In this document: in pieces, positions 40,623 through 45,692 of the stretch
Numbering within the stretch: the first letter of the stretch is position 1
How the letters are laid out: every line of letters begins with the position of its first letter
DNA from: Phormidesmis sp.
Lineage (GTDB): Bacteria; Cyanobacteriota; Cyanobacteriia; Leptolyngbyales; Leptolyngbyaceae
Length of the DNA stretch: 64,000 bases
NCBI GenBank assembly: GCA_965248535.1
Contig: CBDFJR010000005.1
Span: forward strand, 1 to 64,000
Direction: 5' to 3'
Notes under the pieces: model-generated
The model's database searches: none
Told to the model about the DNA's origin: nothing
What the model saw: only the letters and a program-made list of their open reading frames with translations
Translations under genes and position numbers: made by a program

Positions 40623-41009
40623 TCAATCGTTCTCAGCTTGACATTGGGTGCACAAGCCAAAAAACTCCAGCATGTGATAGTAGATTTTAAACTGATAAGA
40701 CTTATGTAGCTGTTCTTCTAGATTGTGAACCGGGCACTCGTCGATCGGAATCGAGCTACCGCACTGCACACAGGTCAAATGGTGCCTGTCTTCTTGAACC
40801 AGGCTATAGAGCGCCTCCCCATTGGGCAACGTTCTTACCTGCACCATTCCCTCTAGCTTCAGGGCTTCTAGACCCCGATAGACCGTCGCCAGCCCCATGC
40901 TTTGCTCGCGGCTGCGAAGTTCGACATAAAGATCTTGGGCTGAGATGGCTCGGTTGAGAATTTTTAAGGTTGTCAGGAGGCGTTCTTGGCTGCGGGTGCG
41001 GGTTCTCAT
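40623..41009 (-). CDS. Fur-family regulator, Zur-like
   Basis: GLATVYR, HHLTCVQC, EFFGLC..C; divergent from purS. Confidence 0.9.
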   Translation of the reverse strand: MRTRTRSQERLLTTLKILNRAISAQDLYVELRSREQSMGLATVYRGLEALKLEGMVQVRTLPNGEALYSLVQEDRHHLTCVQCGSSIPIDECPVHNLEEQLHKSYQFKIYYHMLEFFGLCTQCQAEND

Positions 41010-41151
41010 GAGAATAGGTACGATCGTCCAAAGAGAGTCTAAAAAGTTGTCTACCCTAATTGTAGAAGTTCGGCTGTTTTCATCTAGCTGCGGTCTTAGA
41101 ATAAAAAGGCTGTCACTTTAAGACAGTCTTTTTAGCAATCAGGACACGGCC

Positions 41152-41433
41152 GTGACTCACACCTATCAGGCTCAGATCTATGTTACCCTCCGTCCTTCGG
41201 TCTTAGACCCTGCGGGAACGGCAGTCAAGTCTGGGCTGTCGCACATGGGGCATCACAACGTTGAGCAAATTCGCATTGGCAAATATGTCGAGTTGACGAT
41301 CGCCGCAGACAGCGAAGACTCAGCCCGTCAGCAGTTAGACCAGATCTGTGATCAGCTTCTCGCAAACCCCGTGATCGAAAACTATCGATTTGACTTGCAG
41401 ACGTTGCCGACCCCTGTGGGCGCAGATGTCTAG
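41152..41433 (+). CDS. purS: FGAM synthase subunit PurS
   Basis: VTLRPSVLDPAG, RIGKY, LLANPVIENY. Confidence 0.96.
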   Translation: MTHTYQAQIYVTLRPSVLDPAGTAVKSGLSHMGHHNVEQIRIGKYVELTIAADSEDSARQQLDQICDQLLANPVIENYRFDLQTLPTPVGADV

Positions 41434-42335
41434 GGAGTGTTTTAAAACTACAACCAAAGTTGGATAGAAGCTAAAGTCAGCATGGCAAGGTAGTTTTCCG
41501 CTTTTTTCTCATATCGAGTTGCAATGCGGCGAAACTGCTTCAAGCGATTGAAACAACGCTCTACAACATTTCTGGTTCGGTAGATCGCCTGGTCAAACCG
41601 ACCGCGATGTTTCTCATTGCTCTTACGTGGGATGGTGAAGCGAATGCCGCGACGACGCAGGTAACGTCGGATTGCACCACTGCTATAGCCTTTGTCCCCA
41701 ACCACCCGATGAGGACGCAAGCGTGGACGACCTCGGTGGGGTCGCTTGACGGCTCCTTGTTCCATCAGTTGCTCAAACACGACGGTTTCATGCCGTTCTC
41801 CAACGGTGAGCAAAAACGTGATAGGCAGTCCATTACCATCGCAGCGCAGATGGATTTTGGTGCTGAAGCCCCCTTTCGAGCGTCCTAATGCTTCGCGTTG
41901 CTGCACTTGCTCAATCTCACTGAGCGAACTCTCTGGGTCGAGTGCCCCCTTTTTGCACCCGCCGAGTGTTGATGAGCGCGAATCACACTGCCGTCGACAT
42001 GATGAACCTCCCAGTTCAATTTGCCTTCGGCATCCGCTTGCTGCTGCAAGGTCTGAAGAATCTGATTCCAGATGCCACTGCGTCGCCAACGGTAGAACCG
42101 TCCCGATACCGTCTCCCATGCACCGTAGCGCTCTGGCAAATCGCGCCACGGTGCACCCGTTCTGAATCCACGAAAACGTTGTTTGGGCGACCCACAGTGG
42201 GCTTCTCAGGCGGATTTAAGGGGTTGAGACGTTGCCATTGAGCATTCGTTAAGTTTGCAGTTGGTTGTGGAAGGATCATCCCTGAGTTGTCTCTAGGCGC
42301 AGATAAAACACCTAGATGTTGTTAGAAAAACTCCC
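41433..42335 (-). mobile_element. Degenerate IS5-family element (two-ORF transposase, orfA broken)
   Basis: orfB GRSKGGFSTKIH, GDKGY, YRTRNVVERCFNRLKQFRRIATRYEK; orfA fragments LTNAQWQRL and PERYGAWETV in different frames; imperfect TIR GGGAGTGTTTTAAA / TTAGAAAAACTCCC. Confidence 0.88.
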
Positions 42336-42625
42336 GATCGTTCCCTCAAGAGGCAAGGGCAACCGTAACCAATGACACGATCTATCGGGGGTCTCTAAAG
42401 CTATAACTTGCTTGCAGATGGGGATGAAGTCTCATCTTTTTAACCTTATGACGATCGACCGACAATGAATTATCGCAGTGTTAAAGAGATATTGCAGAAT
42501 AACCAGGCGTGGGACTTACATCCTAGTTGCCCTATGCCGTAGTTTGTTGTTCGTCTTCTTGGCTGCTACTCCATTTGTTCAATTAGGGAGCCGCCCCAAA
42601 TCTAGCAACGACTCCCTAACACTGA

Positions 42626-42997
42626 TCACAGTTGAATGGTGGTTTTGTTGTGCAACTCCTCTACTTGAATTAATGAACCCTCACCCAGAACAATGTTGAA
42701 TTTCACTAAAGAACGTTCAACCTGATAACCAGGCAACACTCGAACAATCTGATACTCTGTGGTCAAATCACTCGTGCCATCCCACTTCAGAAACGCGAGT
42801 TGATTAGACGCAATCTCACTCAGTTCTGAGACGAACTCTTCAATGCTGTCGCTAACATTCACGAGAATGCCAGACGGCACAAAGAGATAACGCTCTTGTA
42901 AATCCAAAACCACACTCACCCGATAACGTTTTTCGATTGAGCATCGCAACTCAACCGTAAACGAAATCGAGCTAGGAACGATCGTCCTAACTGCCAT
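42626..42997 (-). CDS. Hypothetical protein (orphan)
   Basis: 123-aa ATG ORF with AAGAGG RBS; no family recognised. Confidence 0.6.
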   Translation of the reverse strand: MAVRTIVPSSISFTVELRCSIEKRYRVSVVLDLQERYLFVPSGILVNVSDSIEEFVSELSEIASNQLAFLKWDGTSDLTTEYQIVRVLPGYQVERSLVKFNIVLGEGSLIQVEELHNKTTIQL

Positions 42998-43014
42998 AGT
43001 TTTTGTCCTCTTAG

Positions 43015-43134
43015 TTAAGTTAAAGAGGACAAAAACACGGATCTCTCAGACATTGGGTTGGGGGGAAATCTGTATGCAGGATCTTGATTCCAGCCTTTCA
43101 AGATCCCATAGCAAAGCCGACGGTGTACAATCAT
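43015..43134 (-). CDS. Putative 39-aa leader peptide MIVHRRLCYGILKGWNQDPAYRFPPNPMSERSVFLSSLT
   Basis: AGGAGG 5 nt before ATG; TAA falls in the loop of the hairpin covering the next RBS. Confidence 0.45.
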   Translation of the reverse strand: MIVHRRLCYGILKGWNQDPAYRFPPNPMSERSVFLSSLT

Positions 43135-43641
43135 GAACGCCTCCTAAGTTACTAGTTCTAACTAGGGATGGAAGACCTCGGAGTCTGATTTCGTAGATCA
43201 GGCTTCGGGGCACAACTCCATCACTGCGGTGTATTCTACAGGAGTTTTTTGATTTTTGGAATAGTGAGGTTTTTGGGGAAGGGAAGCGATCGTTTTTGGG
43301 GAAGGGGAAGGGGGGCGATCGTAAATTCTTCCTGATTTATGTTCCAGTCGAGCAACGGCAGGGACTCGATCGACTCAGCGCCATGACTGATTCATCGGAA
43401 CGAGACAATTTACTCGCGGCTCCCTTAGAATCGAAAAACCTGAGCGCCATTCCGTATAATTACCCGAAAGTGGAGAGTTGTCCTGTGAGAATTCAGGATG
43501 ATTTCTAAAAAAATGGGAGTTATCCGGTTTCCATACAGCATAATTTCTCTGAGAGAGGCATTTATCCTGTTTGATAGGAGTTCAAACGGCAGAAATAGTA
43601 GTTAGGTAGCCAGTAAACACTCAAGTAGCGAGGTCATAAGT

Positions 43642-44202
43642 ATGAAGCGTCGTCATTTTATACAGCTTGGCGGTCTGTCAACTATTGGGGCAGCAGTTCC
43701 TCTCGTGTTTGAAAGTTTCGGAAGCAGAACATTGCAAGCTGTTGCTGCTGTGCCAAAACACCGAGATATTGTTGCTCTAGAGTGCATGGGAAATATTCAA
43801 GGTTCCAGATGGCTAGATGGAAGAACTGGAAATGGTACAGTTGGGCTTGCTCCTCGGAGAGACGGAGCTTTTACAGGTACACGTTGGCAAGTTTTTGAGG
43901 TGGATTCTGGCATTTACGCATTGAAGTATTTGGGAAATGTTAATGGTTCCCGGTGGCTAGATGGTCGTACCGGAAACGGTACGGTTGGACTTGCACCTAG
44001 AACGGATAAACAATTCTCAGGGACAAGGTGGCAGATTTTTGAGATTAGCTCAGGTATCCTCGCATTCAAGTGCCTGGGGGATGTGGAAGGTTCTCGATGG
44101 TTGGACGGTCGTACCGGCAATGCCACAGTTGGACTTGCGCCAAATACTCCAACACCTGATGGTGGTTTTAGCGGCGCAACTTGGCGGCTCTACAGTGCTT
44201 GA
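43642..44202 (+). CDS. Tat-secreted protein with three ~48-aa repeats (beta-trefoil-like)
   Basis: MKRRHF twin-Arg signal; GSRWLDGRTGN(G/A)TVGLAP x3. Confidence 0.8.
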   Translation: MKRRHFIQLGGLSTIGAAVPLVFESFGSRTLQAVAAVPKHRDIVALECMGNIQGSRWLDGRTGNGTVGLAPRRDGAFTGTRWQVFEVDSGIYALKYLGNVNGSRWLDGRTGNGTVGLAPRTDKQFSGTRWQIFEISSGILAFKCLGDVEGSRWLDGRTGNATVGLAPNTPTPDGGFSGATWRLYSA

Positions 44203-44300
44203 AACCCTACGAAGCTGGAGTGAGAAGCAATCCAGGGCAGGCTGGTAGCGGCTTCTCACACCTTATAATATTGTTGTAAGCCTTTGTAGGGTTTCGGATT

Positions 44301-44516
44301 ATGCTGGCACATCGTATCGAAACGATCATTAATCAGGACAAAACGTTAACATTAGAAAATTTACCATTTCATTCTGGCGAACAAGTTGAGGTAATCATTT
44401 TGTCTCGCCCACGGAGAGAATTTGGACAAAACCGCTATCCTCTTCGTGGAACCACGATTCAATATGTTGATCCTACTGAACCTGTGGCGCAAGATGACTG
44501 GGAAGTTACACGATGA
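44301..44516 (+). CDS. Putative antitoxin
   Basis: 71 aa, LPF..GEQVEVII, EPVAQDDW; ATGA overlap with the PIN gene. Confidence 0.75.
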   Translation: MLAHRIETIINQDKTLTLENLPFHSGEQVEVIILSRPRREFGQNRYPLRGTTIQYVDPTEPVAQDDWEVTR

Positions 44517-44905
44517 TTGTACTCGATACTCGCATATGGATTTGGTGGGTGCATGGAGATGGAAAGCTTACCCGTGAATACTATGAGTACATTCAAGAAC
44601 AAGAATCACAGGGATTGGGAATCAGTGCAATTTCTTGCTGGGAAGTTGCCAAATTAGTTGAATATGGTCGGCTGACCTTGCCCAGATCTGTAGATAAATG
44701 GTTGGATGAAGCTTTGGCTTATCCAGGTATAAATTTTCTGGAGCTAACGCCACGCATTTGCGTAGAATCAACTCAATTACCGGGGGCTTTTCATCGAGAT
44801 CCTGCTGATCAAATCATCGTCGCAACAGCCAGAGTTCACAATTGCCCAATTGTTACAGTGGACAGGAAAATTCGAGAGTATTCATATGTTGAAACTCAGC
44901 CATAA
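44513..44905 (+). CDS. vapC: VapC/PIN-domain toxin
   Basis: MIVLDT, SAISCWE, HRDPADQIIVATA, VTVD. Confidence 0.92.
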   Translation: MIVLDTRIWIWWVHGDGKLTREYYEYIQEQESQGLGISAISCWEVAKLVEYGRLTLPRSVDKWLDEALAYPGINFLELTPRICVESTQLPGAFHRDPADQIIVATARVHNCPIVTVDRKIREYSYVETQP

Positions 44906-44908
44906 GCT

Positions 44909-45692
44909 ACCTAATCGGGTAACCAGGGGATTTTCTCCCCCAGTCCCCACGGCACCCCGCGTGCGGCTCCGCACGGGGCGCGTCCCCAGAAAAGTTTTAG
45001 ACAAGCCAGTTCAATAGAACTGAATATCCAGGGCTGGTTGTGCAGTTAAGCGCCGACAAAATAGCTCCCCCGTTCGGGTTCATCGCCCAGTCGAGCTTTG
45101 CAACTCCTCCCTGCTTTCTAAGGTTCAGCCCTTCACCCTGTCTCACCCATTACGGTGAGTGTTTGGCTACTATGACCTCTGCTGACTTCTGCTCAATCAT
45201 GAGTCCTGTTGCCATGACTCACGCTGCCTGAATGTCCTTAGGGTTCCGTGGCTCCCTAGCCGTTTCCCGCTAGACCTCAATCAGACTCCCGTAGACCCTC
45301 AGACCGCCCTTTGAGCAGATCTCCCCAGATAAGAACGTGAACTGTCTCTGCACAACTGCGTCATTTACTGTGTTCCCTGAACCAAAAGGCTTCATGATGT
45401 TGTGCTCACTTGCCACAGGAATCTCAGCCTTCTATGACGTTTCTGTCCGTCAGCTCGCAGATTTGCCGCTGGCTTCCTTCAGACCCTTCCTCGCGGAAAC
45501 GCCCTTACCTTAAGCTAGTCGTTGTCGTCACTCGGATCTTTTGGGATCATTTGGACGTTGGTTCTCCGACAGGGGACTTTCACCCCATTAGTTCACACCC
45601 ATGCTGGGCGTACACAACACAGTGGAGCGGACGGTATAAATCTCTTGCTTCGTTTCGGTGATATCTGCCACCGCTGAACAGGGTCGTTATGC
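44909..45692 (+). other. Integron attC site (84 bp once the intron is removed)
   Basis: Rejoined ACCTA|AC fits RYYYAAC 3 nt after the vapC stop; inner AGCGG..CCGCT arms; ends GTTATGC at 45686-45692. Confidence 0.72.
44914..45613 (-). mobile_element. ORF-less group IIC (attC-targeting type) intron, 700 nt
   Basis: Minus strand: 5' GTACGCCCAGCATGGGT..GGGGTGAAAGTCCCC; D3-like GAAGTCAGCAGAGGTCATAGTAG..GAAGGGCTGAAC; short D5 ACGCGCCCCGTGCGGAGCCGCACGCGGGGTGCCGT; D6 ending ACCCGAT; flanks TTGT/T. Confidence 0.88.

Follow-up and report, generated by a model that had tools for sequence, protein, structure and literature searches.

The question raised by this locus is how a gene whose ribosome binding site (RBS) is buried in a long perfect hairpin comes to be translated. 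The locus lies in a window of 64,000 nucleotides (nt), which is the whole stretch of DNA analyzed here (positions 1 to 64,000 of contig CBDFJR010000005.1 of Phormidesmis sp.), and the gene, on the minus strand, codes for a protein of 123 amino acids (aa). It is part of a unit at ~43290-42583 that consists of a promoter, a leader of ~230 nt, the 123-aa open reading frame (ORF), and a 3' hairpin, and when copies of the unit were aligned the repeated core had its 5' edge just upstream of the -35 box and its 3' edge at the 3' hairpin. The first-pass annotation of this DNA had pointed out an AGGAGG with a 39-codon leader ORF at 43134-43015 and a perfect inverted repeat of 14 base pairs (bp) that covers the RBS of the 123-aa ORF and holds the leader stop codon in its 10-nt loop, and both are present exactly as described. 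It had also proposed that ribosomes finishing the leader ORF melt the stem and thereby license translation of the gene. We think it somewhat more probable than an even chance that the expression of the 123-aa protein is gated in this manner, by leader-coupled translation through a hairpin-locked RBS. This is supported by a leader ORF that has been kept together with its Shine-Dalgarno (SD) sequence and its stop, and by a mean probability of only 0.02 that the SD of the main ORF is unpaired.

The leader was compared in 59 distinct leaders (alignment A3), and some of the tests were done on 37 or 38 copies. In 54 of the 59 leaders there is an ATG, a frame of 39 codons, and a stop at the identical position in the loop of the RBS hairpin, P4, and so the expectation that the stop position would be conserved in homologous loci was borne out. 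The main ATG lies 20 nt downstream of the first base of this stop and the G-rich core of the main SD, GAGG, starts 6 nt past it. The leader SD is AGGAGG in 57 leaders and AGGAGA in the remaining two, which are the same two copies that have ACG in place of the leader ATG and also C in place of the last T of the -10 box. Besides these two ACG copies, the deviant leaders are two with 40 codons and one that is frameshifted to 37 codons. Four of the five deviants precede aberrant main ORFs, two of which stop at codon 25 and two of which have protein matches that span 520 nt compared to 369 nt, whereas only 4 out of 48 normal leaders do so, a count that leaves out six copies cut by contig ends. With regard to the promoter, position 1 of the -10 hexamer is T in all 59 leaders, position 2 is A in at least 90% of them, and position 6 is T in 57, while positions 3 to 5 vary. 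The TTCCAA-TAGAAT pair was not listed by a consensus promoter scan as it does not satisfy the 9-of-12 rule of that scan; the start of the transcript is predicted near 43226.

When the folding of the leader was examined, the hairpin over the main SD proved very stable, well outside what chance would give. P4 has a predicted energy of -22.6 kcal/mol with a z-score of -5.9 and none of 200 shuffles was as good, and in the predicted ensembles of 38 copies the probability of being unpaired ranged from 0.0002 to 0.40 for the main SD, around the mean given above. The means were higher at the start of the leader ORF, with 0.19 for its SD and 0.49 for its AUG. In the consensus structure 99.2% of 3539 cells were paired compared to 31-46% when the partners were slid. 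The 10-bp core of P4 was paired in 99.3% of cells, but only these inner 10 bp are universal; the outer pairs are lost in about half of the copies, the 14+4 bp of the window being the longest form, and the top pair is U.G in 45 sequences, U-A in 10, and C-G in three. Hairpin P2 was paired in 100% of cells. Hairpin P3, within the leader ORF, was paired in 99.8% (-14.7 kcal/mol with a z-score of -2.6, an energy matched by 4 of 200 shuffles) and has four pairs with one-sided changes that are compatible with wobble, several of them A-U to G.U, and a 10-nt loop that is almost invariant. This is the hairpin that had been noted earlier as a 9-bp stem in the leader; the stem is there but it is in fact 10 bp long with three further outer pairs, spanning 43113-43075. 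The long 5' hairpin that had been reported at 43222-43167, P1, does form in this copy but only marginally so: in a context of 71 nt its energy is -19.3 kcal/mol with a z-score of -1.9, and 7 of 200 shuffles do as well. Its inner stem was paired in 96.9% of cells and one of its outer pairs is an A.C mismatch in 36 of the 59 leaders. P1 is not the best-kept fold of the leader. The very change that breaks this outer pair converts G.U to A-U, in those 36 leaders, in an alternative long-range helix of 14 pairs that the first ~20 nt of the transcript form with the last part of the leader SD together with its AUG and codons 2-3. This helix, which encloses P2 and the inner stem of P1, was paired in 99.2% of cells across the 59 sequences. 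The entire 301-nt stretch folds at a z-score of -3.0.

The changes seen in the stems are mostly compatible with wobble, namely U-A to U.G, G-C to G.U in two copies, and C-G at the top pair of P4, and variation is concentrated in the loops. As most of these changes yield wobble pairs, the pairing appears to act in RNA rather than in DNA. This bears on an explanation according to which the hairpins act as DNA, that is, as single-strand recognition or recombination sites like the ends of IS200/IS605, the burial of the RBS being incidental. The unit would be suited to it in that it is multicopy, dispersed, ~0.7 kb long, and has hairpins near both ends, that an IS200-type TnpA and a TnpB are encoded beside one copy, and that relatives hold 5'-truncated copies and 3' fragments. 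However, most of the stem changes give G.U, which is a mismatch in DNA, the hairpins of the two ends are unrelated in sequence, and P4 coincides exactly with the SD, its loop containing the stop of the leader ORF in almost every copy. Moreover, at E values up to 0.1 the 123-aa protein matched neither Y1_Tnp nor any other family in Pfam, and no H-x-H motif could be seen by eye. We consider it very improbable that the hairpins act as DNA.

Next to a leader frame and end point that are kept, the peptide itself is not selected as a protein. In the leader ORF, the ratio of nonsynonymous to synonymous differences per site (pN/pS) comes to 1.21 over codons 1-21 and to 0.59 over codons 22-39 (with a pS of 0.30 in the latter), compared to a ratio of nonsynonymous to synonymous substitution rates (dN/dS) of 0.12 among copies of the main ORF. 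From this it follows that purifying selection acts on the 123-aa protein, while the product of the leader ORF shows no conservation at the protein level. In codons 1-21 both pN and pS are very low because of constraint at the nucleotide level. The 5' half of the leader ORF has p-distances of 0.01-0.03 and the variable half 0.25, and the variable stretch V3 (~codons 21-34) differs in 34 of the 37 scored copies. Nothing in these data argues for the leader peptide as a protein partner. The near invariance of codons 1-21 at all codon positions would also be expected if the leader ORF were not translated at all and the leader were a structured RNA, such as a switch responding to a ligand, a protein, or temperature, or a stability element, with the frame kept by nucleotide constraint. 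The P3 loop, which unlike the other loops is nearly invariant, suggests a binding site and fits this, and according to the abstracts the named relatives come from cold habitats. But the variable half of the leader ORF, in spite of its divergence, has stayed an open frame with an unchanged end point in 54 of the 59 leaders, and a strong AGGAGG stands 5 nt 5' of the ATG in 57 of them. The Rfam covariance models gave no match in 42400-43700 at E values up to 1. P4 is also far more stable than the RNA thermometers that are known to us, which weighs against a thermosensor. An untranslated, structured leader thus seems to us an unlikely explanation.

There are several points that weigh against leader-coupled translation. 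The first-pass annotation had looked to covariation of the stem for a check, and this check failed: compensatory double changes were found in 0 of 60 pairs by RNAalifold and by explicit pair counts, with two single cells in a separate count, and shuffles of the 3' letters reached the observed pairing values. Owing to this, the structures are based on energetics, invariance, and one-sided changes. The idea that the ribosome finishing the leader ORF melts the stem fits the comparative data on the leader ORF, its SD and its stop, on the P4 core, and on a main SD that is hardly ever free in the predicted ensembles. No more distant loci that could have been used for covariation turned up in genome or metagenome contigs when P0123 (48% identical) was the query, and an alignment-based scan of metagenomes gave 33 loci whose leaders are all 83-90% identical. 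In one copy, the leader that is frameshifted to 37 codons still precedes an intact main ORF. The open frame in the 5' half of the leader ORF could, in view of its near invariance at the nucleotide level, be a by-product of constraint on the RNA or DNA. Finally, owing to the kinship of the copies and to their partial homogenisation within each genome, the counts given above overstate the independent evidence.

Loops 1 and 2, which are carried by the inner stem of P1 and by P2, behave very differently from the invariant stems that flank them. Their p-distances are 0.52 and 0.61, respectively, compared to 0.29 at four-fold sites within the own genome and 0.36 over all copies, they are already saturated in pairs of copies whose four-fold distance is 0.1-0.2, and 37 copies have 36 distinct loop combinations. 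This leads to the question whether the main control is exerted by a cis-antisense RNA across the leader SD, P2, and P1, with the two loops as copy-specific determinants of kissing-loop specificity and with leader coupling only relaying the signal, as in CopA/tap/repA of plasmid R1 and art200/tnpA of IS200. On the opposite strand there is a -10-like TACAAT over leader codons 2-3, in a stretch that is fully invariant, and in the account of IS200 in PMC4513863 the pairing of terminal loops is critical for antisense repression. Sequences complementary to loops 1 and 2 were looked for in the ORF, the 3' region, the upstream flank, loop 4, the variable stretch, the remainder of the leader, and the respective other loop, but compared to mismatched pairs of copies the counts were at most of borderline excess and no position recurred consistently; such an absence of other matches within a copy and around it is what one would expect if the partner of the loops is the complementary strand. 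However, no -35 box and no terminator could be seen by eye in the antisense direction, the promoter and terminator scan listed nothing there, and beyond the TACAAT no antisense RNA or promoter has been demonstrated. The variability of the loops can also be explained by neutral saturation of old copies, provided that selection and gene conversion have maintained the similarity of the other parts: copies at the same site cluster by genome, as described below, and loop sequences recur between genomes, there being only 23 distinct loop-1 sequences in the 37 copies. The loops can be read in two ways, as a sign of diversifying selection on antisense specificity on the one hand and of neutral saturation of old copies on the other, and we regard an antisense RNA as the main control as doubtful.

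Returning to leader-coupled translation, we propose the following sequence of events. Each unit would be transcribed from its own sigma-70-type promoter and control would take place at translation, through two locks. In the first lock, the 5' end of the transcript and P2 would partly cover the leader SD and AUG, and in the second, the very stable P4 would bury the main SD. A ribosome on the leader ORF would then traverse the 5' arm of P4, melt this arm, and terminate in the loop, upon which the main SD would be freed and the same or a new ribosome could start on the main ORF. This would be translational coupling by unfolding, of the type known from tap-repA in plasmid R1. The first lock might be relieved by co-transcriptional folding in which P1 forms first, by an antisense RNA, or by a factor that binds the invariant loop of P3. 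That the leader is translated, that this translation is coupled to that of the main ORF, and by what the first lock is opened we infer. As for expression, contigs from RNA libraries of two studies, of ice and microbial-mat metatranscriptomes, lie on 42620-43279 and 43500-43631, those on the ORF and leader at 85-99% identity, and none lies over 43280-43499 or below 42620. These contigs could originate in DNA or in related organisms and tell nothing about the strand or the ends of a transcript, and are a weak hint of expression.

The gene had been taken for an orphan but it is not, as there are 17 copies in its own 5.03-Mb genome and 414 homologous proteins in a large protein collection, every one of which, where a source is named, is from Phormidesmis. 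A search of 1.84 billion representatives gave 14 clusters; two clusters outside the family, of 2642 aa and 394 aa, are repetitive proteins and were judged spurious. All seven other genomes of the genus carry the unit, and each of them has 4-21 matches. Of 82 genomes from the 26 remaining genera of the order, only one gave a match, which lies on a small contig in an assembly of 85% completeness, and in other families of the class the unit was found in none of 24 genomes. The unit is thus almost restricted to a single genus of filamentous cyanobacteria. Within the own genome the copies are 88-95% identical in the 271-nt leader and 86-98% in the ORF, which is an intact 123-codon ORF in 15 copies, lacks a stop in one, and is frameshifted in another. 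When a 4-kb query was compared to the genome by BLAST, homology among the copies was confined to ~43605-42597, and the flanks of the 12 copies examined are unrelated genes (such as invertase, NAD synthase, ALAD, HAD hydrolase, and TPR proteins). The copies are old, with a dN of 0.054 and a dS of 0.45 within the own genome.

A copy adjoins the NAD synthase gene in five species (genomes G000, G002, G003, G006, and G001); it is 5'-truncated or decayed in G003, G006, and G001, the truncated ones being those of G003 and G001. In a tree, these copies (L011 compared to L089-L092) cluster by genome and not by site, and that of G000 (L011, C5:1069506) falls in a clade with 15 other G000 copies with a support of 99/94. 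Since copies at the same site cluster by genome, this points to concerted evolution, or gene conversion, among dispersed copies. The copy beside the ALAD gene is shared with G002 alone, and none of the genomes searched has an equivalent of those beside the invertase and AstE genes; hence site occupancy differs between species. The intergenic DNA beside the invertase gene, which was examined for an empty site, could not be aligned between species and so the junctions of the unit are not definable there. In G001 and G003 many short fragments were also seen that consist of only the last ~28-45 codons of the 123-aa ORF (for example, G003:C18:1255-1386 and G001:C12:66456-66590), and the fragments and truncated copies in these two genomes have a common 3' end and variable 5' ends. 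Unrelated flanks, decayed and truncated copies, and site occupancy that differs between species together suggest that this undescribed multicopy unit is possibly a selfish or formerly mobile element.

What the 123-aa protein does is not apparent from its relatives, as it matches no family or known fold in the searches made. There was no match below E = 0.1 in Pfam, NCBIfam, PADLOC, or PHROGs, nothing significant among sequence profiles of the PDB, and no match to Rep or any other family; as a control, the Pfam library did find Y1_Tnp (1.3e-35) in the insertion sequence that neighbours one copy. With 16 acidic residues against 11 basic ones, by our count, the protein is acidic, and by eye it appears neither hydrophobic nor membrane-spanning. 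AlphaFold2, with a 20-row alignment, predicted three strands, one long helix, and three strands, with a predicted local distance difference test score (pLDDT) of 88.1 and a predicted template modelling score (pTM) of 0.81 from an alignment that is shallow and with two of the five models poor. The search for relatives by fold that had been suggested earlier gave only what we treat as noise: the best E values in Foldseek were 0.035 against the PDB and 0.021 against viral structures (BFVD), and the best Z in VIA-align against 48,161 chains was 4.4. The ESM Atlas returned only weak matches, to unnamed or FemAB-type clusters, and these were rejected. Nothing indicates that the product is toxic or replication-related, as had been supposed. 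The earlier remark that this may be an undescribed module, on the other hand, agrees with the lack of any match below E = 0.1 in Rfam, Pfam, NCBIfam, PADLOC, and PHROGs and with a search of the literature.

Well-studied examples of leader-peptide coupling through a locked RBS come from the control of plasmid replication and from type I toxin systems. In hok/mok/sok, translation of an upstream frame is needed, the 5' pairings are metastable, an antisense RNA acts against the leader, and there are several copies per genome, and the unit resembles it in having an upstream reading frame, alternative 5' pairings, and several copies per genome. But while Hok is a small hydrophobic membrane toxin of ~50 aa, the product of the unit is an acidic protein of 123 aa that is predicted to consist of strands and one helix, and unlike in hok/mok the leader ORF ends before the main start and does not overlap the gene. 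In tap-repA of the IncFII plasmid R1, and in repY-repZ and repR-repA of IncI and IncI2 plasmids, a leader ORF with its own SD precedes an RBS that lies in a stem-loop, translation of the leader licenses the main ORF, and the sequence of the peptide is unimportant, as summarized in PMC8053102 citing Blomberg et al. 1992. Like tap, the unit has a short leader ORF with its own SD, in 54 of the 59 leaders, and its main RBS is locked in a stem-loop that the leader ORF traverses. It differs in that it is chromosomal, in up to 21 copies, and not located at the rep gene of a replicon, that its product, having no match to Rep, is not a replication initiator, and that its leader stop is 20 nt upstream in a hairpin loop, whereas the stop of the R1 type is at, near, or overlapping the downstream start. 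As for a counterpart of CopA, all that the unit has is the TACAAT on the opposite strand, without a match in the promoter scan.

In size and design the unit is also similar to IS200, which is 707 bp long, has its SD in a stem-loop of the 5' untranslated region (5'UTR), and has a cis-antisense RNA, art200, that is described as acting through the terminal loops (PMC4513863). The unit likewise is ~0.7 kb, multicopy, and has one small gene, a 5' hairpin, and an SD in a 5'UTR stem-loop. Unlike IS200, it has no Y1 (HUH) transposase, the predicted order of elements in its protein being three strands, helix, three strands, and it has a leader ORF that is probably translated. Its 5' hairpins and its 3' hairpin share no sequence, whereas the ends of IS200/IS605 are similar, and its copies are old, with the dS given above. 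A survey of RNA structures from 2026 that covers 202 cyanobacterial genomes (PMC12873609) names the species, in its main text, only in the list of genomes.

Table 1. Features of the unit and of its upstream module, in coordinates of the window
Feature	Position	Strand	Remarks
Optional upstream module A	43605-43300	-	~300 bp, non-coding; precedes 7 of 17 copies (genome BLAST and alignment)
Promoter-like element	43261-43233	-	TTCCAA (43261-43256), 17-nt A-rich spacer, TAGAAT (43238-43233)
Alternative long-range helix	~43227-43208 with ~43141-43128	-	RNAalifold consensus; coordinates approximate, converted from alignment columns
5' hairpin P1	43222-43167	-	56 nt; inner 5-bp stem 43201-43197 / 43189-43185; fold prediction
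Loop 1, hypervariable	43196-43190	-	7 nt; borne on the inner stem of P1
Hairpin P2	43166-43143	-	8 pairs; 3' arm extends into the leader SD
Loop 2, hypervariable	43158-43152	-	In P2
Leader SD AGGAGG	43145-43140	-	5 nt 5' of the leader ATG
Leader ORF (upstream ORF)	43134-43015	-	39 codons; stop TAA at 43017-43015
Hairpin P3	43113-43075	-	Within the leader ORF; 10-bp stem 43107-43098 / 43087-43078 and 3 outer pairs
RBS hairpin P4	43040-42995	-	Perfect 14-bp stem 43036-43023 / 43012-42999; 10-nt loop 43022-43013
Main SD AAGAGGA	43012-43006	-	Inside the 3' arm of P4
Main ORF	42997-42626	-	123 aa; ATG at 42997, just past the 3' arm of P4
3' hairpin TTAGGGAG...CTCCCTAA	42619-42583	-	Variable interior, no U-tract; 3' end of the repeated unit (17-copy alignment)

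The 3' hairpin was looked for in the genome with a loose pattern in which one mismatch was tolerated per arm. It was found downstream of the ORF of 10 copies, in 9 of which both arms are exact, twice beside copies but upstream of the ORF, and at 24 places elsewhere, where it is mostly inexact. It was considered whether this hairpin is common to another element, which was rejected as the matches away from the copies are mostly inexact, and whether it resembles attC, which was also rejected as the order of its arms, by eye, is opposite to that of attC. Module A is also present at two other sites, C2:1675286-1675657 and C2:2140237-2140394 of G000, and at one extra site of module A a stretch of ~1.26 kb lies between it and the core of another copy. 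There are two further types of upstream module, each common to two copies, and the upstream modules join the core at CGATCGC (HIP1-like) together with pyrimidine/A-run repeats.

The neighbourhood of the unit in the window contains other features. Directly downstream, at 41448-42279 on the minus strand, an IS4/IS5-type DDE transposase is encoded in two overlapping ORFs, a DUF4096-like N-terminal part at 42016-42279 and DDE_Tnp_1 at 41448-42149, and this split may reflect a frameshift mutation or programmed frameshifting. On the plus strand, 43642-44202 codes for a protein of 186 aa that has a signal-like segment at its N terminus and, within it, repeats of ~48 aa; in its DNA, 43787-43997 matches 43931-44141 at 72%, and it has no Pfam family above threshold. 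It is followed, at 44301-44905 on the plus strand, by a 71-aa ORF that overlaps a 130-aa ORF with a PIN domain (Pfam PIN, 7.6e-16), which is the layout of a VapBC-type toxin-antitoxin pair. Domain V/VI of a group II intron is at 44914-44983 on the minus strand (Rfam, 43.5 bits with a gathering threshold of 40, E 1.9e-06) and is the only Rfam match in 41000-45000. The last ~90 nt of this intron (45000-44911) recur at seven other places in the genome with 88-100% identity, and thus the intron family is multicopy in this genome.

If the evidence on the leader, the loops, and the copies is put together, one may picture a new kind of small selfish element, a cassette of 0.7 kb with its own promoter and a protein of unseen fold, that has spread and been homogenised in one cyanobacterial genus without a recognisable transposase, with a double-locked leader and with loops that serve as barcodes and diversify, whereby every copy would evade antisense inhibition from the 16 others; this picture is speculative and, taken as a whole, we would not expect it to be right. 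With respect to leader-coupled translation itself, we know of no previous example, in cyanobacteria, of a multicopy family on the chromosome that has leader-peptide coupling as a constant trait. What the family offers is 59 natural variants of one switch, including copies in which the leader start is gone along with the promoter T and a G of the SD. As there are natural variants that have lost the leader start, the mechanism is directly testable with a few reporter constructs.

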